This document shows positions 24,520 to 45,854 of a stretch of DNA of 49,995 bases, piece by piece. The notes under the pieces were generated by a model. The model had not been told where the DNA came from, searched no databases, and saw nothing but the letters and a program-made list of their open reading frames with translations. Source of the DNA: a virus (Duplodnaviria; Heunggongvirae; Uroviricota; Caudoviricetes); IMG/VR virus record IMGVR_UViG_2721755643_000006, positions 1 through 49,995 of that record, one strand, 5' to 3'. Position numbers and translations under genes: made by a program. Position 1 is the stretch's first letter. Each line of letters starts with the position of its first letter.

Positions 24520-24914
24520 ATATCGTGCTAAGCCCCGGACAAGCTCATGAAAGCCAGTTCGCGCAACGACTTCTGGACGGGATTGGCGTTCAGCGTCAGA
24601 ACGGCAGCATGAAACGCCGTGGACATGCGGTACTGGCTGATAAAGCGTATTCAGGGCGCGCATTGCGCAACGAGCTGAAAAATAACGGTATAAAGGCAGT
24701 AATCCCCCGAAAGTCAAATGAGAAAATGGCATCGGATGGACGTGCACAGCTTGATCGTGATGCGTACCGCAATCGTAATGTCGTTGAACGGTGCTTTGGG
24801 CGGCTGAAAGAATATCGCCGCATCGCCACGCGTTACGACAAAACGGCGAGAAATTACCTGGCGATGGTGAAACTGGGCTGCATCCGACTCTTTTATCAAC
24901 GCTTACGTAATTAA
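24399..24914 (+). CDS. IS transposase OrfB (DDE domain), expressed by -1 frameshift fusion
   Basis: DDE-type C-terminal domain ORF overlapping orfA; fusion predicted at the A7 slippery run. Confidence 0.75.
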   Translation: MCRRCSKKHPDIDGDNGLGRSRGGFGTKIHLATDGSGLPLNIVLSPGQAHESQFAQRLLDGIGVQRQNGSMKRRGHAVLADKAYSGRALRNELKNNGIKAVIPRKSNEKMASDGRAQLDRDAYRNRNVVERCFGRLKEYRRIATRYDKTARNYLAMVKLGCIRLFYQRLRN

Positions 24915-25366
24915 GGGACACAGCCTAGTGATGCTGCGTATTCGATTAGATATAACTTAGGTGCCAGCCAGATTTTTAACCATGTCATATTGGCTACTAT
25001 AGAAATAATAAAACTTAACCATAGAATAAAAACTGCTACTAATGGTAAGACAAAAGCACTTAACCTACCGTCACTTTCCCAAATCATAGTCGGTTTGTAT
25101 TTAGGCTGTCCATTATCACATGAGCGTCCGTCATTATCGAACTTACCAATTTCAACTTTTTTGCACTGTTTCTTCATAAACCAAATAACCAGCGGGATTG
25201 TTGAAATGGCTATTAATGTTTTAATCAGGCTATCAACTATATTCCATACCAGCAACTGATGAACAACATCCGGAATCTGAGCCTGACTGAATGCAATGGC
25301 GGAATCAATTCCATCGCTGGCATTGTTCAATAAATCAACAAGAATTTTCTTTGCTTCTTCTTGCAT
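24911..25366 (-). CDS. Small membrane protein with two predicted TM helices; 3' end altered by the IS insertion
   Basis: 151-aa ORF with hydrophobic stretches LIKTLIAISTIPLVIWFM and LSAFVLPLVAVFILWLSFIISIVANM; AGGA 8 nt upstream of ATG; last codons and stop lie inside the IS right inverted repeat; AT-rich. Confidence 0.6.
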   Translation of the reverse strand: MQEEAKKILVDLLNNASDGIDSAIAFSQAQIPDVVHQLLVWNIVDSLIKTLIAISTIPLVIWFMKKQCKKVEIGKFDNDGRSCDNGQPKYKPTMIWESDGRLSAFVLPLVAVFILWLSFIISIVANMTWLKIWLAPKLYLIEYAASLGCVP

Positions 25367-25489: not shown

Positions 25490-26350
25490 TTAGTTATGTA
25501 ACTGCTTCTGGAATACAACAGCCGACGTGCTACAACGTAAAATTCGTTTGATTGTGGCAGTTGAGGAAACAGACTTGCATTTCTCAATATCATCAATGAT
25601 GACCACATCCGGTACAGGCATGATGCGGGTATGCAATGTTTTTGCACTAATAACATCACAGCCATTCAGTGGACGAATATCTGCATCTTCAGGCACTACC
25701 AGAAGCACACGTTTCTCCGTTGCAGAAAAGCCAGCAGCAAGAGTTCGCGACAATAAAGTCATTCCACTACGTGGCTTCATACAAATTTCAGAAATATGAT
25801 TTTTTTCGTCCAAATGATGCTGGCCATCATTTTTATCATCACTCAACAACTCTGCTGTTAATACAATCCCTGCTGTCTCAGATTTCCAGGAAATGCTGAT
25901 ATCCTGATCATCTGCATCAACATCATATTTCATCGAGTAAGGACTAAAGCAACGTCCAACGAACGCATCGTTTACCAGTACACGCCCACCCTGTCTGACC
26001 TGAAAGTCAACGCGCCCTGAAAGCTGATTTACTGTTACAAGCAATGCCTTTTTTCTTTTTGTTTTATTACTCATTGCCACAAACTGTTCAGCCATCTCTC
26101 TTGTCACACTACCAGAAACTCTTTCTTGAATTTTCACAGTAAATTTTCTGGATGTAGTAGCATCGACATTAAAAAATCTGGATGTCATTAGGCAGTTATT
26201 AACAATTGGCATCAGCTCACTTACAATTGTAACAAATTCCCGGTAAAGCTCATTTTGCTTTTCAGCACACAGTTTTCCGCAATCGGCCAGCTTAAGCTCA
26301 AGAGCAATTAATCGTTCCATTATTGAATTAATTTTTTGCAACTCTTTCAT
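25490..26350 (-). CDS. Hypothetical 286-aa soluble protein, first gene of cos-proximal cassette
   Basis: ATG at 26348-26350 preceded by AGGAGG with 5-nt spacing; N-terminal coiled-coil-like region; no family recognised; the longer ORF-track version (to 26650) reads through the 177-bp repeat and is an artefact. Confidence 0.65.
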   Translation of the reverse strand: MKELQKINSIMERLIALELKLADCGKLCAEKQNELYREFVTIVSELMPIVNNCLMTSRFFNVDATTSRKFTVKIQERVSGSVTREMAEQFVAMSNKTKRKKALLVTVNQLSGRVDFQVRQGGRVLVNDAFVGRCFSPYSMKYDVDADDQDISISWKSETAGIVLTAELLSDDKNDGQHHLDEKNHISEICMKPRSGMTLLSRTLAAGFSATEKRVLLVVPEDADIRPLNGCDVISAKTLHTRIMPVPDVVIIDDIEKCKSVSSTATIKRILRCSTSAVVFQKQLHN

Positions 26351-26984: not shown

Positions 26985-27452
26985 TTAATTCAGGCATTGC
27001 GTATTGATGTATTCCTGAAGCGTTCTCAGTGCTGTTTGGTCGCGGATAATTCCGTCCCGGATACCGAGAACGTTTCGTCCAGCAACTGAAGAGAGTTCGA
27101 CGGTGGCATCATTGCCCATGCCGGAGGCGCTGGAGGTTTTGGCTGAGGCTGGCACAGGGCATTTTCCTTTGACGAGCACCCGACCACCATTATCAAGCTT
27201 GCGCCGAAGAGCATCATTTTCAGCTTTCGCATCAGCTAACTCCTTCGTGTATTTAGCATCGAGTGCATCAACAGAACGCTGGCGCTGCTGCATGTCAGTA
27301 ATGGTTGCGTTCGCCAGCTTCAGTTCTCTTGCGTTTTTGTCGCGCTGCTCTTTGTAGGTAATGGCGTTATCACGGTAATGATTAACAGCCCATGACAGGC
27401 AGACGATGATGCAGATAACCAGAGCGGAGATAATCGCGGTGACTCTGCTCAT
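26985..27452 (-). CDS. Rz: Spanin inner-membrane subunit Rz
   Basis: [53 protein letters not shown]...[19 protein letters not shown] matches lambda Rz. Confidence 0.92.
27026..27232 (-). CDS. Rz1: Spanin outer-membrane lipoprotein Rz1, embedded in Rz in the +1 frame
   Basis: [21 protein letters not shown] (lipobox) followed by Pro-rich [16 protein letters not shown], as in lambda Rz1. Confidence 0.75.
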
Positions 27453-27982
27453 TGATCTATCCCCCAACAGGCTAATGCGCTTTCCTGGTCACGACGAATA
27501 ACCTGTCCATAGCAGTTATTTGAACGTATGCGGCAATCGCGCCCAACATCTTTTATCCACCAGCGAATCGCCTCGCATGCGCCCTTACGATCACCGGCAT
27601 TCAGCCGCTTATAAAACGTCGACGGGAAACACTTACCGGGGCCAATGTTATAGGGGCAAAATGACGCTATACCCGCTTTTTGTGGTTCGGTCAGTGGTAC
27701 TTTAATATTGCGCTCCACCCATGCCAGCGCCTTATCACGTTCAATGGCGTTAACCTGGTCGCATTTTTCCTTCGACAGTTTCATACCGGGAAAAACGGGT
27801 TTACCATCCACCATCGTGGCACCCCGACAGATGGTCCAGATGCCGGAACCATCGCGGTATGCCGTAGTGTGGTTACCTTCTTTTTCATCCAGAAACTGGT
27901 CGAGAATATCAGGCGCAGGCGCACCGATAGCAATCAGTGCCAGAACGGCAGCCGACAGGCCATATCTGATTTTTACGTTCAT
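27449..27982 (-). CDS. R: Endolysin R, T4-lysozyme-like with N-terminal SAR/signal-anchor segment (phage 21 R-type)
   Basis: Hydrophobic N-terminus then lysozyme-like region ([20 protein letters not shown]); stop overlaps Rz start. Confidence 0.88.
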
Positions 27983-28303
27983 GGATATTTATCAGGATTT
28001 ATCGGCTTCAAATCCCCGGATATGTTAAATCTTACCTCGCCAGTGATGGGCACTGGCGGGAGGAGGATGTCAATCTGATAAACACAGAGGTGACTACGGA
28101 TTACACAAATCTACCAAAACAAACTTTTGCTGATTTAATCGCACTCAGGCAAGCAGTCGTAGCTCTAATCAACTTGTTGCCGGAGAAGGAAAAGGAATTA
28201 GTTAAAGCGCTTCTTAACAGAACTGCCGCCGATTTTTCATCATATCCACTGACAGATGACCTTGCGGACCTTCCTGAATTAATTGCAGCGTCCGCCATTA
28301 AGC

Positions 28304-28834
28304 TTACTGAAGAGATTTACCCTCCTCAAAAATCTTCACAAAATTCCTGCGAGTAACTTCAATGCAATAATCGTAAAACGCCGCAAACTGCTCATCGCGG
28401 CGTTTTTTTTCATCTTCAGAAGGAATCAGCACCGACAATTTTTTCTCCAGTTTTTCAATGGGCGATTCAATATCATCTTTTTCTGACCGCAATGCCGTCG
28501 GTGGCGTCTTCAGAGAACCAGTAATTCTTCCCGGTAGCTTTCCTTTGTAGGTTATCCACACATTCTGCGCCTCTAAAATTATGGGGCGCTTTTCCGGCGA
28601 CTGCTCATCCCCTTCACATAACCCGGCAGCAACATCCAGGAATACCTGTCTGATTCTCATTCTGGCCGCTGCCTCATAAAACTCCAGCGCGGCACCTTCA
28701 ACACGGTCCAGCGAGATGTCCAGGTCAAAAATTTCACCGTCAAAGCGTTTTTTGTCCCGTAACGCTAAAGTTACCGCAACTTTATTCTCAAAATTGCGGA
28801 TCCCTTTCACAATCAGTTCATAGTTTTGTGTCAT
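28304..28834 (-). CDS. Conserved lysis-cassette protein between holin and endolysin (YdfR-like), function unknown
   Basis: 176-aa ORF; N-terminus MTQNYELIVKGIRNFENKVAVTLALRDKKRFDGEIFDLDISLDRVEGAALEFYEAAAR resembles E. coli Qin YdfR as far as memory allows; position mirrors essQ-ydfR-rrrQ. Confidence 0.55.
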   Translation of the reverse strand: MTQNYELIVKGIRNFENKVAVTLALRDKKRFDGEIFDLDISLDRVEGAALEFYEAAARMRIRQVFLDVAAGLCEGDEQSPEKRPIILEAQNVWITYKGKLPGRITGSLKTPPTALRSEKDDIESPIEKLEKKLSVLIPSEDEKKRRDEQFAAFYDYCIEVTRRNFVKIFEEGKSLQ

Positions 28835-28838
28835 TGAA

Positions 28839-29054
28839 TTACTCTCCCCGCGCAGCCTTACGCTTGTCTTCTCTTATTTTGAAATACAGATTCGTCAGAT
28901 AAGTCAGAAGCCCCAGAAGCAGACTTCCCAGCACACCAATCGCAGCCCACTGTGATGGACTGACCTGATCCAACCACTGCAAAAACCAGTAGCCGGCACT
29001 GCCGGCGGAGGTGCCGTAGGCAATGCCTGTTGATATTTTTTCCATCTGATACAT
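28839..29054 (-). CDS. S: Pinholin, phage 21 S-type, with dual-start motif
   Basis: 71 aa; [62 protein letters not shown] matches S21; Met1 and Met4 (MYQMEK) as in S71/S68. Confidence 0.88.
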
Positions 29055-29091
29055 ATCCCGCCCCCCGACAGACCTGTGCTATCGGAAAGAA

Positions 29092-29125
29092 AAAAGGCCA
29101 TCAGCAAAACTCTGATGGCCTGAAT
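29092..29125 (-). terminator. Rho-independent terminator just upstream of the lysis genes
   Basis: Minus-strand hairpin GGCCATCAG-AGTTTTG-CTGATGGCC followed by TTTTTTCTTTCC, ~40 bp upstream of the holin start. Confidence 0.6.
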
Positions 29126-29734
29126 CACCTTTACCAATATTGTATGAAAAAACACGCACGACTAATTGACAATAATTTTCATTTCCATTAAAAAAGATCG
29201 CGTAGCATTCTTAATTCATGAGGAACTTTACCCGCCAGCAATCTGAGTAGCGAAAGCTGTTCATCCCCAATGTTTTTGCTGGCGGGTCCTTTTTTCTACG
29301 GTCCTCCTCCCCGGAGGGGGGCATTTCATTATTTTTCTAATCGTTACTGGTGAGAAGGCGGAAGAAAAAGCCAGTTCTTCGCCCCTAAATAACAGCATGA
29401 TTCCAGTCCATGCAAAATCTGATTTCCAGCTCACACATACCGAGCGCTGTACAAAAAACCGCCAGCCAAGGCAGTTAAGAGTGTGTTCCCGGGGTTTGCT
29501 TAGAATATTTTGTAAGTTGTCCGAAGAGATATTTACAACACCAGAATGATGAATCATCAGTCCCCTGCCAGAGGTTCACTACGTAACCTGACCGACAATG
29601 CACCATTCTGGTGCTGAAAAAAGAGCACTGGAACTGCAACAAAACAACATCACAGAACAGGAGATGGTAAGGAGTCAGACATTCCCACACAATATTGTGT
29701 CAGTGCAAATAACAACCTTCGTCTCAAATCTCGC

Positions 29735-29809
<75 letters not shown>

Positions 29810-29812
29810 ATA

Positions 29813-29888
<76 letters not shown>

Positions 29889-29890
29889 GC

Positions 29891-29967
29891 TGGCCCACCA
29901 CCGAGGACTCGAACCTCGCACCGTCAACTTAGAAGGTTGATGCTCTATCCGGATGAGCTAGTGGTGG
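29891..29967 (-). tRNA. tRNA-Arg (anticodon TCT)
   Basis: 77-nt cloverleaf: anticodon stem TCAAC/GTTGA, loop CTTCTAA, T-arm CGAGG-TTCGAGT-CCTCG, CCA end. Confidence 0.75.
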
Positions 29968-29968
29968 T

Positions 29969-30044
29969 TGGTGGCCCTTGCTGGACTTGAACCAGCGACC
30001 TGGCGATTATGAGTCGCTCGCTCTCACCACTGAGCTAAAGGGCC
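29969..30044 (-). tRNA. tRNA with CAT anticodon, ileX/ileZ-like (Ile2 or Met)
   Basis: GGCCCTTTAGCTCAGTGGT.AGAGC...GACTCATAATCGC...GGTCGCTGGTTCAAGTCCAGCA.GGGCCACCA is nearly identical to E. coli tRNA-Ile2 as recalled. Confidence 0.8.
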
Positions 30045-30084: not shown

Positions 30085-31143
30085 TCACTCTCTCTTTCTG
30101 ATTGAATTCTGTACATCTCTTGCGGTCTGCTCAAAACGTTCAGCCTCCAGCTCGACACCAATTGCACGACGCCCCAGCGCCATCGCTGCTTTGACTGTCG
30201 AACCGGACCCCATGAAGAAATCTGCAACCAGGTCACCCGGACGACTGCTGGCGGTAATCATTTGCCGCAACATATCTGCCGGTTTTTCACAGGGATGTTT
30301 GCCCGGATAATACTGCACAGGCTTGTGCGTCCAGACATCCGTATAAGGAACGGCTGCCGATACGGAAAAATAACGCCGCAGGGATTTGTACTCTTCCAGC
30401 AGGCTGGCATACTGCCGGTTCAGCTCACTGTATGTGCTGACCAGTTGGTGATGTGGCTTTTCCAGTTCACCCCGCTGATGTTTCTCTTCTGCCACCCGGG
30501 CAAACAGCACCTGAAGTTTTCTGTAATCATCCTCGTTCGGTAACTGCCACTGGCTGGCACTGAACCAGTGCGACACCATGTTTTTCTTTCCTGAGACATC
30601 AGCAATCTGTTTTGCCGTTATCCCCAGAGCCGCACGCGCATCACGAAAGTAAGAAATCAGCGGAGCCATCACATGCTGTTTCAGTGCCCTGCCCTTCGCC
30701 TCATAGCCATCATCTTTTGGACGATACGGCCCCTGATAATGTTCCGCGAACAGAATGCGCTCTGTGGCGGGGAAATACGCCCGCAGGCTTTCCTTGTTGC
30801 ACCCGTTCCAGCGCCCGGACGGCTTCGCCCAGATAATGTGGTTCAGCACATTAAAGTGCTCACGCATCATGATTTCGATATCAGATGCCAGGCGATGACC
30901 ACAGAACAGGTAGAGACTTCCGGCAGGCTTCAGTACCCGCCAGAATTGCGCCAGACACTGATCCAGCCATTTCAGGTAATCCTCGTCGCCCTTCCACTGG
31001 TTATCCCAGCCCTCGGGCTTCACTTTAAAGTATGGCGGGTCTGTGACTATCAGATCGACAGAGTTTTCCGGTAAGGTCTGGATAAATTCCAGGCAATCAG
31101 CGTTGATTAACTCACAACTGGATATTTTTACAGTATTAGTCAT
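30085..31143 (-). CDS. Orphan DNA methyltransferase (N6-adenine/N4-cytosine, DPPY motif)
   Basis: N-terminal motif IV VTDPPYF followed later by SAM-binding FFMGSGST; no adjacent restriction gene. Confidence 0.85.
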   Translation of the reverse strand: MTNTVKISSCELINADCLEFIQTLPENSVDLIVTDPPYFKVKPEGWDNQWKGDEDYLKWLDQCLAQFWRVLKPAGSLYLFCGHRLASDIEIMMREHFNVLNHIIWAKPSGRWNGCNKESLRAYFPATERILFAEHYQGPYRPKDDGYEAKGRALKQHVMAPLISYFRDARAALGITAKQIADVSGKKNMVSHWFSASQWQLPNEDDYRKLQVLFARVAEEKHQRGELEKPHHQLVSTYSELNRQYASLLEEYKSLRRYFSVSAAVPYTDVWTHKPVQYYPGKHPCEKPADMLRQMITASSRPGDLVADFFMGSGSTVKAAMALGRRAIGVELEAERFEQTARDVQNSIRKRE

Positions 31144-31293
31144 AGATCAATAAGCACTTCTCTGATAGGCTCATTCTGCTTTTGCGCAAAGCAGATGGGC
31201 CTGAGGTTTGCTTGTGATCCCAACGCATGAGCAGATGGCTGGCAGGTGCCGCTAACACCCACCAGCCGCCCATTACCACAAATAAAAAAGCCT

Positions 31294-31473
31294 TCACTGC
31301 GGAAGGCGTCTGTAACAACCGAACTGATAATCTGCCAGACCCGCCATAACAAGCTGGGTCAGTATTAACTGGCAGCGTTCGCGTGAAAGATAAATGTTCT
31401 GCGCAATTTCCCCGACGGTCGCCGGTTCGGTGACGCTTAATTCATTAAACACCACTCTGGCGGTTTCGGTCAT
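31294..31473 (-). CDS. Small hypothetical protein, possible winged-helix DNA-binding
   Basis: Short ORF between antirepressor-like gene and methyltransferase; weak call. Confidence 0.3.
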   Translation of the reverse strand: MTETARVVFNELSVTEPATVGEIAQNIYLSRERCQLILTQLVMAGLADYQFGCYRRLPQ

Positions 31474-31715
31474 ATCCTGCTGTTTTAGCATGTCTTTTCC
31501 CTTTTCTGGTTAACGTGACATACCAATAACTCTTGTCTAAAAAGCCAGCAAGCTGAAAGACCGATATTCTCAACCACCAGCGCGTTTAACGTCCTGTACC
31601 GCTTTTCGGGCACAAAAAAAACCCGCTCATCGGCGGGTTTAAGCTGTGTGGCGTAGTAACCACTCTTAACAGGATATTCAACTTTTTACGATCGTAAAGC
31701 GTTCGGGGAAAATTT

Positions 31716-32276
31716 TTAAAGCCGCATCAGTCGTTCCACCAGCTGCTCTTTACGGGCAACGATCCAGCCGCGTTGTTCCAGATAAAATTTGAACCGTTCC
31801 AGAGTGCATACCATCACATCGGCAGGTACTTTTTCCGTGAAGTCGACCTGACCGTGTTTATCGAAGTGGATCAGTAATGCGCATCCATCATTTTCGGTGG
31901 GGGAATTTTGTGTTGCTGGTGGCTGTTTCTGGCTGAAATAACAGTCTTCCAGTTTTTCGAATACTTCCCACGCCTGATCGGTTTCGAGCATTTTGGCGTG
32001 ACGGGCTGCTCCGCGTTCTGTCCAGAGGATGAGGTGCTTTGTACGCGGTGCAACTAAGTTACTTTGAGTAACCTTGTTCTTAAATTCCCGCAATTCAGCC
32101 CCTTCCAATTTGAAGTAGTGTTTCCCACAAACAAAACGCTCGGCATTGCGTGTATAGTTCACTTTGATGTTATTAGTTTCGGTGCCATAAAGTTGTGCCA
32201 AAAGCTCGGTAGTAATGACAGGGATTTGGTTATGGGTAATCGGGGAAAGAGTTTCAACTGAGATTTGAATAGCCAT
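31716..32276 (-). CDS. Phage antirepressor-like protein (N-terminal Ant/ORF6N-type domain plus C-terminal domain shared with the Rha-like gene at 45098)
   Basis: LAQLYGTETNNIKVNYTRNAERFVCGKHYFKLEG; C-terminal LIHFDKHGQVDFTEKVPADVMVCTLERFKFYLEQRGW parallels VVHFDKFGNVEFTETVPDGALVCTLETFRFYLEKQGW in the other gene. Confidence 0.7.
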   Translation of the reverse strand: MAIQISVETLSPITHNQIPVITTELLAQLYGTETNNIKVNYTRNAERFVCGKHYFKLEGAELREFKNKVTQSNLVAPRTKHLILWTERGAARHAKMLETDQAWEVFEKLEDCYFSQKQPPATQNSPTENDGCALLIHFDKHGQVDFTEKVPADVMVCTLERFKFYLEQRGWIVARKEQLVERLMRL

Positions 32277-32352
32277 AGGATGATCCTTTTTCTATGTGAA
32301 TCATCACCAACCTGAGACCAATCAGGGTGGTGAGCTGGCGGCGTTGGTCTTA

Positions 32353-32384
32353 CCGGGAAAAAGGAACCGGCGCGCCGGAGCGCC
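32353..32384 (-). terminator. Candidate tR'-like terminator downstream of Q
   Basis: Minus-strand GC hairpin (GGCGC-loop-GCGCC within CCGGCGCGCCGG) followed by TTCCTTTTTCC. Confidence 0.3.
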
Positions 32385-32510
32385 ACCGCCAACCCACCAT
32401 AATGCGAGTGTGGCTATGCAAACGACAATAAAAAAGACGCGAGCGCGCCTATTGCCGCCTTTTTCATCCGGGAGACCAATCCCGACGCCAGATTTTGCTG
32501 ACGCGTGAGG

Positions 32511-32540
32511 AATATAGCCCCGGACAATGTGTCTGGTCAA
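32511..32540 (-). promoter_or_regulatory. Candidate late promoter (pR'-like) just after Q
   Basis: Minus-strand TTGACC, 18-bp spacer, TATATT, beginning 5 bp after the Q stop. Confidence 0.3.
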
Positions 32541-32544
32541 GCTA

Positions 32545-32940
32545 CTACATGATTCGTTCTACGTATCTGTCCATCTCCAGTCGGATATCAAGCATCATCA
32601 ACATGCCATCAATAACCCCTTCCGCTTTCTGCAGGCGCTTGCCAATACAGGTATCCGAACACCCATGCTTTCGTGCCAGCCCCATAAAAGTCATTCCACC
32701 TACGTAATAATCCACCAACAAATCGTGCAAATCCTGATTTTTCTTGTTCAACCGGGCCATACAGCCACAAATTATCATTGCATCATCATCAGAACACTGA
32801 GGGCGTGATTTCACTTTCGGCGGGATTAATCCTTTAAAACCAGCAGCTATTGACGCCCATGACACATCTTCGTGATTGTTTGCAGCCCATGCTCCCCACC
32901 GCTCCATAACCTGCTGAATATCACGCACCATCGTTATCAC
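32545..32940 (-). CDS. Q: Late-gene antiterminator Q (DLP12 QuuD-type)
   Basis: [60 protein letters not shown]...[37 protein letters not shown] matches QuuD as recalled. Confidence 0.8.
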
Positions 32941-33299: not shown

Positions 33300-34358
33300 T
33301 CATGCTTTCCACTTCAGGACACCCGAATTTCTCGCGTGCATTAAAAAACGAATCAGCAACAACAGCTGGCTGCCGTGTTTTTCTTCAAAATCTTTTACCC
33401 CGGTGTGCAGTTCGTTATGACATTTACGGCACAACGGAATAACAAACAAATCGTCAGCCTTTGTTCCCATCCCTCCCAGTCCATGACCAATGATGTGATG
33501 CGGATCATCTGCCTGATTGCCACACGTCATGCATTTCTGCGTTTTTACCCAGCGCGTGTATACAGGCATCTCTTCCCGTTGTGGTTTCTGGCGCTGGAGA
33601 TACTGAGCCGGAGATTCCGGATCAACGGCAATGCTGACCACCGTCTCTTCCTGTGGTGGATTCTGTTGCTGGTGGACGTGAGGCGGTAGCGCAATATTTT
33701 TTGTGCGCTGCTTTAGTATGCTGGTGGCAGTCTGCTCTCCCGGTATGATGTCGCTTTCGCGGTACACTGAGCGGATTTTTTCCGCACGCAACCCCAGAGA
33801 ACGACGTAATACTGCCTCCGGTAGCGCGTCCGCCACCTGATTGCAGACCGCCCACCAGGATAATTCAGCCAGCGATAATTCCCGCTCCTGCGTGCCATTC
33901 ACTGCATGGCGTATGACGTCAATCATCCATGCTGACAGGTTTTGATGAGCAAGTTGCCCGAGTGATTCGGATGTCTGGTCACGCAGCTGGTTGTCGCAGT
34001 GCCAGCACAACACCATCGCGCCGGTACCATAACGATGTATGACGATTTCACTGTGATGATAGTCACCATGAGGCCACTGGCAGGATTTAACATGACGCAG
34101 GAGCCAGTCAGACAGTGCACCAGCGCCGCAGGCAGCACGAACCACCCGCTCATCGCTGAAAAATGGCAGCAGAGATTTGTCTTCCGCCAGCGGCTGGCGA
34201 ACGGCAGGAACGACCCCGGACGGCAGACCGCGCATGCTTTTTGGTTCCGGTTCAACCAGCACTCTGCCGTTATGGAATACCTGCATGGATTCACGGCCTG
34301 GCTTAACGATAACCACCCCAAGTTCCGGTACCAGAACAGGTCGAAGTAATACCCGCAC
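33300..34358 (-). CDS. DUF968-family protein with HNH-like Cys/His C-terminus (YdfU-like)
   Basis: C-terminal CMTCGNQADDPHHIIGHGLGGMGTKADDLFVIPLCRKCHNELH; typical nin-region gene. Confidence 0.65.
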   Translation of the reverse strand: MRVLLRPVLVPELGVVIVKPGRESMQVFHNGRVLVEPEPKSMRGLPSGVVPAVRQPLAEDKSLLPFFSDERVVRAACGAGALSDWLLRHVKSCQWPHGDYHHSEIVIHRYGTGAMVLCWHCDNQLRDQTSESLGQLAHQNLSAWMIDVIRHAVNGTQERELSLAELSWWAVCNQVADALPEAVLRRSLGLRAEKIRSVYRESDIIPGEQTATSILKQRTKNIALPPHVHQQQNPPQEETVVSIAVDPESPAQYLQRQKPQREEMPVYTRWVKTQKCMTCGNQADDPHHIIGHGLGGMGTKADDLFVIPLCRKCHNELHTGVKDFEEKHGSQLLLLIRFLMHARNSGVLKWKA

Positions 34359-37193: not shown

Positions 37194-37667
37194 CTATTTC
37201 ATAAAAATAATCCAGTGGGTTTTATCGTTTTTTCCTGTTCGTTGACCGATAACAGGTTTTCTGTCGGTCAGTACCAATATTTGGCGAACAGGTATTTGCG
37301 TTTCATTCCATTTAAAAATCAGAACGCCGGATGGACGCAACACACGAAAGGCTTCTTTAAATCCCTGCCGCAAATCATCACGCCAGGTATCTTTATTCAG
37401 CCGTCCATATTTCTTTCCCATCCAGGCGTTATCACCAACACGCTCAAGATGCGGAGGGTCGAATATAACCATCGAAAAAGATGCGTCTGCAAATGGTAGT
37501 GCACGAAAATCAGCTATCAGATCAGGACTGATAATCAGGCATCGTCCATCACACAATGTGTGCTCTTCCTTTCTGATATCGCTAAATATCGCCCGGTCGT
37601 CATTCTTATCGAACCAGAACATACGGCTGCCACAGCACATATCAAGAATGGTTACCGGTGTACTCAC
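37194..37667 (-). CDS. Small putative methyltransferase (DPPH motif)
   Basis: VIFDPPHLER resembles motif IV of amino-methyltransferases; only 157 aa. Confidence 0.5.
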   Translation of the reverse strand: MSTPVTILDMCCGSRMFWFDKNDDRAIFSDIRKEEHTLCDGRCLIISPDLIADFRALPFADASFSMVIFDPPHLERVGDNAWMGKKYGRLNKDTWRDDLRQGFKEAFRVLRPSGVLIFKWNETQIPVRQILVLTDRKPVIGQRTGKNDKTHWIIFMK

Positions 37668-38086
37668 AGCATCACCTCCTGAAAGTTACCCTGATAGAAC
37701 GCCAGCACACGCTGCATAACCTTGCTTTTCCGGCACTCGCGACAGATTATGTTCTGACGCCTGTCGTAGCGGCGTATTTCTCCGTCAGGTAATGACCAGA
37801 TAAGGTCCGGATCAACAACAACCGGTTTCCTCACCTTTACTCTCAAGAGTTTTTTGCGGGCGCTTTGCCAGTCCTTGCGAGCCTGTTCAGACGGGAATAA
37901 GCCGTAGCCAGAATTATATACATCACCACTTGCGACCAGTTCCATGCATAAGCGACCGACAGACGCACGACTGATACCTGTTTCATCTGACAACTGCCGA
38001 ATCGTGACCCGACCGTCCTGATGCACGAGTTCCACAATTCGCGTCTTCAGTTCTTCCCGCTGTTCGGGAGTAAAAGGTTTCGCCAT
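37664..38086 (-). CDS. Hypothetical protein with predicted HTH and C-terminal Cys motif
   Basis: IRQLSDETGISRASVGRL HTH-like segment; CRECRK motif; downstream of the DnaC-like gene. Confidence 0.45.
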   Translation of the reverse strand: MAKPFTPEQREELKTRIVELVHQDGRVTIRQLSDETGISRASVGRLCMELVASGDVYNSGYGLFPSEQARKDWQSARKKLLRVKVRKPVVVDPDLIWSLPDGEIRRYDRRQNIICRECRKSKVMQRVLAFYQGNFQEVML

Positions 38087-43097: not shown

Positions 43098-43253
43098 ATG
43101 GATACTATCGATCTTGGCAACAACGAATCTCTGGTGTGCGGCGTGTTTCCCAACCAGGACGGCACGTTCACGGCGATGACGTATACCAAAAGCAAAACGT
43201 TTAAAACCGAAAATGGTGCCCGTCGCTGGCTGGAAAGAAACTCAGGCGAGTGA
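43098..43253 (+). CDS. ydfA: YdfA-like small protein
   Basis: MDTIDLGNNESLVCGVFPNQDGTFTAMTYTKSKTFKTENGARRWLERNSGE nearly identical to Qin YdfA. Confidence 0.8.
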   Translation: MDTIDLGNNESLVCGVFPNQDGTFTAMTYTKSKTFKTENGARRWLERNSGE

Positions 43254-43254
43254 T

Positions 43255-43383
43255 ATGGATTTCGACGCAGTCATGGAAAAGGCTTACGAAGAATACTTCG
43301 AAGGCCTTGCCGAAGGCAAAGAAGCTCTCAGCTTCAGTGAGTTTAAACAGGCGCTTTCCAGTTCGGCAAAATCTAACGGCTGA
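43255..43383 (+). CDS. ydfB: YdfB-like small protein (42 aa)
   Basis: MDFDAVMEKAYEEYFEGLAEGKEALSFSEFKQALSSSAKSNG; start overlaps ydfA stop; below ORF-track cutoff. Confidence 0.7.
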   Translation: MDFDAVMEKAYEEYFEGLAEGKEALSFSEFKQALSSSAKSNG

Positions 43384-43412
43384 TAAGCGAAACAGCACCG
43401 CGAGGAATCAGT

Positions 43413-43631
43413 ATGCAGAAACGAGAACCCGTCATCATCGCGCCAGACTATACCGATGATGAACTTTATGAGTGGATGCGCCAGAAAATTAATGCAGCGC
43501 AGGATCTGAAATGGGCCAATGAAGCCAGGGCTAAGCAGGCTGAAAATCTGTCCGCTCTGGAGCAGGATATCACCAATCTGGAAAAAGCAGCGGCATTAAG
43601 CATTGCCAGAATGATTGCATACCCGCGTTAA
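43413..43631 (+). CDS. ydfC: YdfC-like protein
   Basis: 72 aa in the Qin ydfA-ydfB-ydfC order. Confidence 0.75.
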   Translation: MQKREPVIIAPDYTDDELYEWMRQKINAAQDLKWANEARAKQAENLSALEQDITNLEKAAALSIARMIAYPR

Positions 43632-43653
43632 TAGCTAACCAACGAGGCTAATA

Positions 43654-43983
43654 ATGGAATTTAAAGATTTACCAATGCCATTCCAGGAAATGGCAGCGAA
43701 TATAGTTCGTTCCCAACTGGCGACTCTTGACCTGAGTACCGTAGAAAAAGAAACCATCGATACTATATCCGGTAACGTGCGTCGTGCCTTTATCGGTCTG
43801 TACGAAGAGAAGCAGCTCTCTGATAACCAGGATTTACATGAAAAATACTTCCTGGATCTAATGGACATCATTGATAAGGGGTTTGGCTTGTTAATGAAAA
43901 AGAAAGGGATTCGAATAGAACCCCTTGAAAATTACTTTGCAACAAAAAGCATTAATTCTTTTGATTCAAAACAAGAGAATTAA
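43654..43983 (+). CDS. Hypothetical protein (109 aa)
   Basis: GAGG 8 nt upstream of ATG; AT-rich; no family recognised. Confidence 0.5.
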   Translation: MEFKDLPMPFQEMAANIVRSQLATLDLSTVEKETIDTISGNVRRAFIGLYEEKQLSDNQDLHEKYFLDLMDIIDKGFGLLMKKKGIRIEPLENYFATKSINSFDSKQEN

Positions 43984-44227
43984 TTACAGATTTAACATGC
44001 TCTTTCTCATGATTGAAGCTCTCATGATTGAAAGTGCCTGGTTGAAGCGAGTCGATATAATCAACAAGACTCTGTCGTACGACTTCATTTTTATCCATTA
44101 CAGATGCAAGAAATGAAATTGCTAAAAGAGTTATATCACTACGCGCCGCAGCATGCTGCAATGCTTTATCAAAATTATTAATCTGGCGTATCAGGGAGTT
44201 AATGATTTCATCATTTTCAGTCGACAT
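43952..44227 (-). CDS. Hypothetical protein (91 aa), antisense to the early-left operon
   Basis: ATG at 44225-44227 preceded by AGGAGGG with 5-nt spacing; 3' ends of this and the preceding + gene overlap. Confidence 0.5.
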   Translation of the reverse strand: MSTENDEIINSLIRQINNFDKALQHAAARSDITLLAISFLASVMDKNEVVRQSLVDYIDSLQPGTFNHESFNHEKEHVKSVINSLVLNQKN

Positions 44228-44554
44228 TTCACCCTCCTGAGGGTTGGTGATTAAGGAGTTCTCCACGGGTGAGGTGGAGTGCGTGCGCCGGACACGGGTG
44301 AGCATCCGGCACTGACAGTTTACTGAAAGGATATTTCCCTGAAAAGTCAGACCATAACGCGAAAGCGCACGGCGAGGTAGCTGGTTCATAGATAGCCTGT
44401 CGTTAAATTATCGTCGACCGTACGCTTCCGGTTGTGGCAATCCGCGAAATGGCGCGGCGGTAAGTATGGCAGGGGTACTATTCTCCCTCCCCTGTGGAGC
44501 ACCGGGTTGTCAGGTTGACCATACGCTTAAGTGACAACCCCGCTGCAACAACCC

Positions 44555-44616
44555 ATGTTGATTACCTTTTGGCGGGTATCCGTTTTTTGTTTTCCCTTGT
44601 GATACCCGCCCTTTTT
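44555..44616 (+). ncRNA. dicF: DicF-like small RNA with intrinsic terminator
   Basis: TTTGGCGGGTATC...GATACCCGCCCTTTTTAAAGTGAATTTTGTGATG resembles E. coli dicF and its 3' flank as recalled; hairpin 44571-44610 followed by CTTTTT; upstream of dicB; 5' boundary uncertain. Confidence 0.5.
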
Positions 44617-45097
44617 AAAGTGAATTTTGTGATGCGGTGAATGCGGCTCAGCGCACGCGGAACAGTTAAAAAGCGATTAGTTCCCACGTATCGGGTGGTT
44701 ATGGGTATCCCTGTATCCGGCGTTAATTGTTAACTGGTTAACGTCACCTGGAGGCACCAGGCACCGCATCAACAAAGTTCACTTCGGTGATGAAAGGAAA
44801 GAGAAAATGTTGAATGTAGCTATTGAAAACCAGAACGGGTGGAATTATAGTGCACCTGCACCTCATAAAACGGGTGCCGGGATTGGCCTCCTGTTAATCA
44901 CATTGGTGCCTGAACACGCGCCAAAAGCGTGTTTTTTGTTGCCTGCATTTCATCATTCAATGGCAGCTCAGGCGGGAGCTTCTCACGAAGCGCCGGGTTC
45001 CGATGTGACCGGTAAGGCCAATCCCGTCTGGGCTACCACCAATCGGATTGGCCTCTGCGGTGGTGGCAGTACTGCTTTCACATCGGAGGATGCCGTT

Positions 45098-45655
45098 ATG
45101 GCTACTATCACTACCCTTTCTCACCCTTGTGTAACCATCGAAAATGGTCGCGCTGTCACCACATCTGTCGCCATTGCGGAATTCTTCCGCAAAATGCATA
45201 AAGACGTTCTGAAAAAAATAGACAACCTAGAATGCTCTGAGAAATTTAGCGGGCGCAATTTTGCGCCCGCCGAATATCTTGATGAGCAAGGCAAAAAACG
45301 CCCAATGTACCAGATCACCAAAAACGGCTTCGTTTTCCTGGTGATGGGCTTCACAGGCAAAAAAGCCGCTGCATTCAAGGAAGCCTACATTGCTGAGTTC
45401 GACCGCATGGAGGCCGAACTGCGCCAGAATAACACCCCACCTGCTGACAAGATGATTCCGGGTGATGGTCGCACTCTGGTTGTTCACTTCGACAAATTCG
45501 GCAATGTCGAATTCACCGAAACCGTTCCTGATGGCGCACTGGTCTGTACCCTGGAGACTTTCCGGTTTTATCTGGAAAAACAGGGATGGACTCTTGTTAA
45601 CCGGGGCGCAATTAAAAATATGACTGTGGAACAATTACTCAAAATTCATTGTTGA
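45098..45655 (+). CDS. Rha-family phage regulatory/antirepressor protein
   Basis: Rha-like N-terminus (VTTSVAIAEFFRKMHKDVLKKIDNL) and the C-terminal domain shared with 31716-32276; GGAGGA 7 nt upstream; the longer ORF-track N-terminus is probably not translated. Confidence 0.72.
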   Translation: MATITTLSHPCVTIENGRAVTTSVAIAEFFRKMHKDVLKKIDNLECSEKFSGRNFAPAEYLDEQGKKRPMYQITKNGFVFLVMGFTGKKAAAFKEAYIAEFDRMEAELRQNNTPPADKMIPGDGRTLVVHFDKFGNVEFTETVPDGALVCTLETFRFYLEKQGWTLVNRGAIKNMTVEQLLKIHC

Positions 45656-45665
45656 GGACGCAATA

Positions 45666-45854
45666 ATGGAGACGTTATTACCAAACGTTAATACGTCTGA
45701 AGGTTGTTTTGAAATTGGTGTCACTATCAGTAACCCTGTATTTACTGAAGATGCCATTAACAAGAGAAAACACGAACGGGAGCTATTAAATAAAATATGC
45801 ATTGTTTCAATGCTGGCTCGTTTACGTCTGATGCCAAAAGGATGTGCACAATGA
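45666..45854 (+). CDS. dicB: Cell division inhibitor DicB
   Basis: METLLPNVNTSEGCFEIGVTISNPVFTEDAINKRKHERELLNKICIVSMLARLRLMPKGCAQ nearly identical to E. coli DicB. Confidence 0.9.
   Translation: METLLPNVNTSEGCFEIGVTISNPVFTEDAINKRKHERELLNKICIVSMLARLRLMPKGCAQ

Follow-up and report, generated by a model that had tools for sequence, protein, structure and literature searches.

M.EcoGII is a commercial enzyme for chromatin footprinting. It is a beta-class methyltransferase of 349 residues from an Escherichia coli O104:H4 prophage, is identical to M.EcoGI at 333 of 349 positions, has a close relative in phage 1720a-02, and methylates adenine in any sequence context in double-stranded DNA, single-stranded DNA and RNA (PMC5778455). 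The enzyme is silent in the lysogen, and its over-expression is toxic and slows growth (PMC5778455). Both M.EcoGI and M.EcoGII have been described as orphans (PMC5778455, PMC6602927), and methylome studies treat homologues 92-99% identical to them as non-specific and silent (PMC4659465, PMC6602927). In this study, we analysed the 49,995 nucleotides (nt) of IMG/VR virus record IMGVR_UViG_2721755643_000006 (positions 1 to 49,995, the whole of which is called the window), which are 100% identical to positions 2898604-2948598 of E. coli strain RMDEC364 (NZ_CM177020.1) and constitute a lambdoid prophage with its genes mostly on the minus strand. An earlier sequence-only reading had singled out two open reading frames (ORFs) as methyltransferase genes, and both lie where it had placed them, on the minus strand, at 30085-31143 (hereafter gene 1) and 37194-37667 (hereafter gene 2). 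They are two unrelated, partner-less methyltransferases in separate transcription units of one prophage. We consider it quite probable, taking the account as a whole, that gene 1 encodes an M.EcoGII-type enzyme made late and serving anti-restriction, and that gene 2 encodes an intact minimal amino-methyltransferase made early and acting on nucleic acid.

The 352-residue product of gene 1 (WP_046881165.1) matches the Pfam family N6_N4_Mtase over residues 29-340 (PF01555; E 4e-45; score 154.9 bits, cut-off 26.7). The sequence-only reading had called it an amino-methyltransferase in which DPPY precedes FxGxG, and this order is found: motif IV, DPPY, occupies residues 35-38 (31030-31041, minus strand) as in M.EcoGII, the target-recognition domain follows at residues 160-237 (30433-30666, minus strand), and the S-adenosylmethionine (SAM)-binding motif I, FMGSG, comes last at residues 310-314 (30202-30216, minus strand), which is the beta-class order and that of M.EcoGI and M.EcoGII. 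The limits of the recognition domain are those of M.EcoGII, in which this domain is a four-helix bundle with a helix-turn-helix (PMC11551740); residues 167-195 of gene 1 give a faint HTH_3 match in Pfam, 71 of the 78 residues of the domain are identical to M.EcoGII, and gene 1 has the Gln179 of M.EcoGII, a residue contrasted with Glu179 of the engineered SUPREM variant (PMC11551740). Over its full length gene 1 is 89-90% identical to the two enzymes, with 314 of 348 positions shared with the 349-residue methyltransferase of the O104:H4 strain 2009EL-2071 prophage (90%) and 311 of 349 with the M.EcoGII sequence in the supplement of PMC11551740 (89%), a printed sequence that carries a few machine-reading errors (three obvious). 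The 2009EL-2071 protein and printed M.EcoGII agree at 330 of 350 positions, which corrected for three reading errors equals the published 333 of 349, thus the 2009EL-2071 protein is of the M.EcoGI type. What sets gene 1 apart from M.EcoGII and M.EcoGI is a length of 352 instead of 349 residues and about 35 substitutions, seven of them in the recognition domain. At the DNA level, the gene 1 region is about 87-90% identical to the "DNA methylase" genes of many Shiga toxin (Stx)-converting phages, phiP27 and phage 1720a-02, and the 1.6-kb region was matched in 4,512 of 5,426 complete E. coli genomes, at a median of two places per genome. Judged by these identities, gene 1 is a member of the M.EcoGI/M.EcoGII family of non-specific adenine DNA methyltransferases, to whose well-known enzymes it adds a new allele but nothing new in kind.

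Comparison with other described enzymes is consistent with this assignment. Beta-class N6/N4 enzymes of solved structure, among them CcrM, M.RsrI and M.MboIIA, have both halves of the catalytic domain in common with gene 1 (PDB matches of E 5e-25 to 3e-16), whereas they are sequence-specific and carry unrelated recognition domains, gene 1 aligning with them in its N- and C-terminal blocks only. Neither gene 1 nor gene 2 matches MT-A70 in Pfam, their motifs being DPPY and DPPH and not DPPW, and neither matches the phage Dam family PF05869 (e.g. M.EcoVT2Dam) in Pfam at E <= 0.1. Hia5, Hin1523 and Nme1821 of Mu-like prophages are also phage-borne, partner-less and nearly sequence-independent N6-methyladenine (m6A) enzymes for which an anti-restriction role has been proposed (PMC3299994), but the Hia5 type was rejected as a relative, being alpha-class (FxGxG first, DPPY last), about 281 residues long and unrelated in sequence to both genes.

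The sequence-only reading had noted no restriction endonuclease beside gene 1, and the annotation agrees: RefSeq gives none in the window, scans with Pfam, PADLOC and PHROGs found none among the unannotated ORFs, and no type II restriction-modification (R-M) partner adjoins gene 1 or gene 2, the neighbours of gene 2 homologues being varied and including no nuclease family. It had also named a partner elsewhere in the window as the finding that would speak against an orphan, and no restriction enzyme was found anywhere in the window. A role of gene 1 as the modification half of an R-M system, with the endonuclease encoded at another place in the window, is thus largely refuted and, in our estimate, extremely improbable. 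The places left for such a nuclease are the ORFs at 24911-25366 and 25490-26350 and a DUF968/HNH-like gene (33300-34358, HNHc_6 E 2.3e-7), which have no assignable function, but none of them matched a restriction-enzyme family in these scans, DUF968 is found in the related O104:H4 prophage as well, M.EcoGI and M.EcoGII are orphans as mentioned above, and a non-specific methyltransferase has no cognate site for an endonuclease.

Gene 2 encodes a stand-alone protein of 157 residues with no target-recognition domain, and the proposal that this DPPH-motif protein is a second methyltransferase is supported. It matches PHROG 954, "DNA methyltransferase", from end to end (E 1.5e-85), and likewise the PADLOC models for type II and orphan methyltransferases (MTase_II E 6.5e-73, orphan E 4.9e-50; PDLC03288, PDLC03730). 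Pfam gives the generic Methyltransf_11/25 only, Methyltransf_11 at 23.7 bits (cut-off 21.2), and the RefSeq label is "class I SAM-dependent methyltransferase", in one genome "TRM11 family methyltransferase". An AlphaFold2 model built with 74 diverse homologues has a predicted local distance difference test score (pLDDT) of 94.4, all 157 residues forming the catalytic core; a first model from a shallow alignment of 43 close homologues, of pLDDT 64, was discarded in its favour. With this model as query, Foldseek returned 90 PDB matches of E <= 0.001, of which the 50 listed are without exception class I methyltransferase folds; the neighbours, at template-modelling (TM) scores of about 0.5-0.6, include Trm11, M.TaqI, TrmM, HemK, Bud23, nucleomethylin and a lipid N-methyltransferase. 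These searches, of the PDB and of viral models, confirm the fold and do not discriminate the substrate. Motif I, the acidic residues D30, D49 and D53 and the predicted fold identify gene 2 as a class I (Rossmann-fold) SAM methyltransferase.

The suggestion that this second enzyme is degenerate did not hold. An inactive methyltransferase remnant might be suspected from a length of just 157 residues, from a His in place of the aromatic residue of the usual (D/N/S)PP(Y/F/W) of motif IV, and from the RefSeq version of 143 residues, which lacks motif I. On the other hand, motif IV, DPPH, at residues 70-73 (37449-37460, minus strand), is invariant in the alignment of the 74 diverse homologues (40-92% identity), as are D9, D30, R32, P48, E105, R108, W120 and P138, and D49 and D53 are conserved in at least 90% of them, thus the SAM-binding and catalytic motifs are both present and kept. 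Searching a 90%-identity collection gave 7,438 homologues at E <= 0.001, in about 2,060 clusters at 50% identity, of which the closest mostly have the same core of 155-170 residues. The family is found in 254 deposited phage genomes with Streptococcus, Vibrio, Acinetobacter, Porphyromonas, Listeria, Gordonia, Lactobacillus, Enterococcus and Staphylococcus as hosts, and most of these copies, in phages of Proteobacteria, Firmicutes, Actinobacteria and Bacteroidetes, Gram-positive hosts included, are 45-66% identical to the E. coli gene 2; the O104:H4 genome (2009EL-2071) encodes a copy that is 93% identical. Together with the confident predicted fold and a strong Shine-Dalgarno sequence before the start codon, these observations make a degenerate gene 2 very improbable. 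From its sequence conservation gene 2 is clearly under selection, and DPPH is the hallmark of its family and not a decayed DPPY.

The short RefSeq version seems to be a matter of annotation. Gene 2 starts with a GTG at 37667, 7 nt downstream of an AGGAGG and overlapping the upstream stop codon as GTGA, and all 42 of the 42 aligned close homologues start a few residues before LDMCCGS, the motif I at residues 8-14 (37626-37646, minus strand). The RefSeq start at 37622 is probably wrong because it removes this SAM-binding loop.

Gene 2 shares every invariant residue of the PHROG 954/PDLC03288/PDLC03730 family and nothing sets it apart, while many other members carry N- or C-terminal extensions, added mainly in distant homologues, which are unrelated to each other and have no counterpart in gene 2. 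Residues 46-118 of gene 2 align with residues 13-79 of gene 1, the catalytic block from DPPY to RVLKPxG (hhalign probability 90.5%, E 1.4e-6), and one gene 2 homologue (P0134) weakly matches PF01555 (E 0.003). The alignment indicates homology between the catalytic blocks of gene 2 and the beta-class DNA amino-methyltransferases, although gene 2 has His where such active sites usually have an aromatic residue. A different SAM-dependent enzyme, the other option of the sequence-only reading, is less probable given this homology. As a whole, the protein resembles a DNA amino-methyltransferase core in which the SAM motif has shifted to the N-terminus and the recognition domain is absent.

The sequence-only reading had put gene 1 in the late region, and it is indeed located between a Q-family late antiterminator (32545-32928, minus strand, RefSeq annotation) and the lysis genes, in the order Q, terminators, a 65-residue ORF, gene 1, four tRNAs and lysis genes. 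The O104:H4 prophage that carries the M.EcoGI-type gene has the same order of Q, small ORF, methyltransferase, tRNAs and holin. Terminator-like hairpins on the minus strand stand between Q and gene 1 at 32450, 32385, 31640 and 31307; the strong one at 31612-31640, upstream of the gene 1 cassette, is the point at which homology with the O104:H4 prophage begins and is a candidate tR'-type terminator. The four tRNAs (Ile/Met-CAT, Arg-TCT, Thr-TGT and Gly-TCC; 29735-30044, minus strand) lie immediately downstream of gene 1. Unlike the M.EcoGII/M.EcoGI prophage, the present one has further elements between Q and the cassette: Rfam places isrK (70.8 bits), a C4 antisense RNA (60.3 bits) and, close to threshold, a c4-a1b1 target element directly after Q (32323-32517, minus strand), and next comes an ORF6N anti-repressor gene (31716-32276, minus strand; PHROG 2379, E 2e-90) that is absent from all 80 related loci. 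The interval from Q to the late terminator thus holds a module like those of P1 immI and Gifsy-1 IsrK. A promoter-like site at 32540-32511 was considered as pR' and rejected, since it overlaps the c4-a1b1 and isrK matches and more likely drives the anti-repressor module; with this site dropped, the true late promoter was not located in the window.

We infer from this position, behind several terminators in a Q-dependent late operon, that gene 1 is not expressed in the lysogen and that its product appears only in the late lytic phase, under Q antitermination, and the silence reported for its relatives in lysogens would then be explained because the gene is read only when Q acts. The enzyme would flip out adenine and methylate N6 in essentially any sequence context, blanketing progeny DNA with m6A before packaging, and the phage so marked would escape most adenine-sensitive restriction enzymes in the next host; late Q-dependent expression would fit such a modification of progeny DNA. 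The sequence-only reading had offered an anti-restriction or an epigenetic role for an orphan gene 1. The former agrees with what has been put forward for M.EcoGI and M.EcoGII (PMC5778455), while an epigenetic role in the lysogen is unlikely because these enzymes lack sequence specificity and are silent there.

The 65-residue ORF upstream of gene 1 (31294-31491, minus strand) encodes a winged-helix protein that matches PHROG 331 (function unknown, E 8e-37) and, weakly, TrmB (E 0.0023). It precedes the methyltransferase gene in 77 of 77 related viral loci, is mostly 92-98% identical among them, and is spaced from it by 114-181 nt, mostly 154-161 nt. Between the two genes here lies a conserved leader of 150 nt (31144-31293, minus strand), with a predicted fold of -72.4 kcal/mol (z -4.7) and a terminator-like hairpin with a T-run at 31290-31307; the leader is conserved in 42 sequence variants, which keep the pairing of the long hairpin via G-U changes, and compensatory changes occur at three predicted pairs only, two of them in the terminator-like hairpin. 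By this comparison, the M.EcoGII-type gene, the winged-helix gene and a structured leader move together as one constant cassette, an arrangement that goes unmentioned in the available part of the bioinformatic section of the M.EcoGII paper (PMC5778455).

This constant company raises the alternative that gene 1 acts together with the winged-helix protein, which might control its expression or retarget it, for instance to rRNA. A precedent comes from an Stx phage, in which M.EcoPA8orf6770P, a "DNA adenine methyltransferase", needs the winged-helix subunit PNB-2 to target 16S rRNA (PMC10810198), and M.EcoGII itself methylates RNA in vitro (PMC5778455). The likeness extends to both of our genes, each of which has a winged-helix gene directly upstream. 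M.EcoPA8orf6770P was rejected as a relative of either, being an MT-A70 enzyme with DPPW and of another family, and DUF977, the winged-helix protein next to gene 2, is not conserved beside it. Against such a partnership for gene 1, M.EcoGII needs no second protein to be fully active on DNA (PMC5778455), and the PNB-2 pair is co-transcribed, whereas here the genes are set apart by 150 nt and a terminator-like hairpin. The 77 loci are also all closely related, with methyltransferases at least 89% identical, and the linkage may be simply inherited. We regard a joint action of the two proteins as improbable and prefer the reading of gene 1 as an enzyme acting by itself on progeny DNA.

Gene 2 had been assigned to the nin region, and it does open the nin-equivalent region, following straight on from the replication genes. 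A tightly packed minus-strand series of cro-like, YdaT, O-like, DnaC-like, DUF977 and gene 2 ends with it; among the last four genes, the first two intervals measure 6 and 14 nt and the final pair overlaps by 4 nt, and the stretch from a pR-like promoter at 41481-41452 to gene 2 has no strong terminator on the minus strand. This operon position suggests expression in early lytic growth and repression in the lysogen. The gene immediately upstream (37664-38086, minus strand) encodes a DUF977/Ren-like winged-helix protein (Pfam DUF977 E 1.5e-35 with HTH_24; PHROG 142) and is translationally coupled to gene 2, here and in O104:H4. DUF977 was considered as a recognition subunit and rejected: a DUF977 homologue was detected in 11 of 80 viral loci carrying gene 2 homologues and stands directly upstream in nine of them. 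Neither the 157 residues of gene 2 nor its surroundings provide a target-recognition domain or partner subunit, and no other conserved neighbour of gene 2 homologues was found in the 80 loci. In eight of these loci (from IMG/VR, within L006-L082), an ORF with C5-cytosine-methyltransferase motifs, 679-764 residues long where complete, comes next after the gene 2 homologue, and the early region of those phages may be a hot-spot for methyltransferases.

As to what gene 2 modifies, we propose that in the early lytic phase it methylates a nucleic-acid base at an exocyclic amino group, most likely adenine at N6 in DNA, and that any sequence specificity is low or limited to a short site; this is our best guess from the sequence, held with modest confidence. 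A possible but less likely reading is that gene 2 acts not on DNA but on RNA (guanine-N2 or adenine-N6 of tRNA or rRNA), on a protein glutamine or on a small molecule. The top Foldseek matches, with Trm11, Bud23, TrmM, HemK, nucleomethylin and the lipid enzyme among them, the generic Pfam families, the RefSeq labels and the lack of a DNA-recognition domain are all compatible with such a substrate. In addition, the family is not among the homologues of the O104:H4 strain C227-11 named in the available part of PMC6602927, the enzyme list of this strain being second-hand, from available parts of PMC4659465 and PMC6602927. This absence despite the O104:H4 copy may mean that the gene is silent in the lysogen or that its substrate is not DNA, and the silence of a repressed early gene would by itself explain why methylomes miss it. 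Other observations argue for DNA: the catalytic block aligns with beta-class DNA amino-methyltransferases, and a family member weakly matches PF01555; the PADLOC models that gene 2 matches are those of type II and orphan methyltransferases; and the gene adjoins replication genes here and, in other loci, sometimes C5 DNA methyltransferases.

More tentatively, gene 2 may represent an unstudied class, a minimal nucleic-acid amino-methyltransferase that consists of the 157-residue core with its invariant DPPH, has no recognition domain and has a motif order circularly permuted relative to the beta-class enzymes, and whose substrate is perhaps not sequence-specific duplex DNA; candidates may be replicating or single-stranded phage DNA, methylated non-specifically, or host RNA. 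We searched the literature on DPPH-motif and DUF977-linked methyltransferases and found no experimental characterisation of the gene 2 family. A lesser variant of the same tentative reading is that the M.EcoGII-type enzyme of gene 1 is regulated or redirected by the structured leader together with the always-linked winged-helix protein. The preferred target of gene 2 is nevertheless DNA adenine-N6.

Several points weigh against our overall account of the two genes, beyond the absence of the gene 2 family from the C227-11 homologues. The fold neighbours of the gene 2 model are generic class I methyltransferases, enzymes of RNA, protein and lipid included, and among the solved structures gene 2 has no counterpart of similar sequence, searches with the single sequence and with two profiles having given generic and mostly non-significant methyltransferase matches. 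The methylation activity of both proteins is a prediction, and the promoters and terminators given above are purely consensus matches. The anti-restriction role is a proposal of the M.EcoGII authors, not a demonstrated phenotype (PMC5778455), and since 7 of the 78 recognition-domain residues differ from M.EcoGII, gene 1 may have some sequence preference.

The remainder of the window follows a lambdoid layout, with tail, head and terminase genes at 1-23344, lysis genes at 26985-29054 and the four tRNAs, then gene 1, Q, RusA, DUF968, hokD, gene 2, the replication genes and the immunity region. A type III secretion system effector gene of the ipaH type (ipaHd) flanks the prophage at 1-1093, an IS66-family element interrupts the early-left region at 43117-45732, and the RusA gene is frameshifted, therefore the prophage may be partly defective. 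The spot between the lysis genes and terminase is a usual site for phage cargo genes, and it holds two minus-strand ORFs of 151 and 286 residues (those at 24911-25366 and 25490-26350) with a copy of ISSfl7 adjoining; neither has a Pfam or PADLOC match, and they fall only in PHROGs 3054 and 2571 (function unknown). No gene lies at 29055-29734, between the phage tRNAs and the holin gene, where several terminator-like hairpins are found. This interval is the slot occupied by stx in Stx-converting phages; while it is empty here, the related O104:H4 prophage has a SASA-family esterase gene in the equivalent slot.

For users of the databases, the RefSeq start of gene 2 is an annotation point, as it removes the SAM-binding motif. 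For gene 1, the methylome of an uninduced lysogen would probably show nothing of its activity, thus data of this kind will probably not reveal M.EcoGII-type enzymes. Gene 2 carries modest value as a member of a very widespread and strongly conserved family of phage methyltransferases whose substrate has so far been only inferred. If both enzymes act on DNA, methyltransferases of the early and the late operon would protect the phage at two stages of lytic growth.

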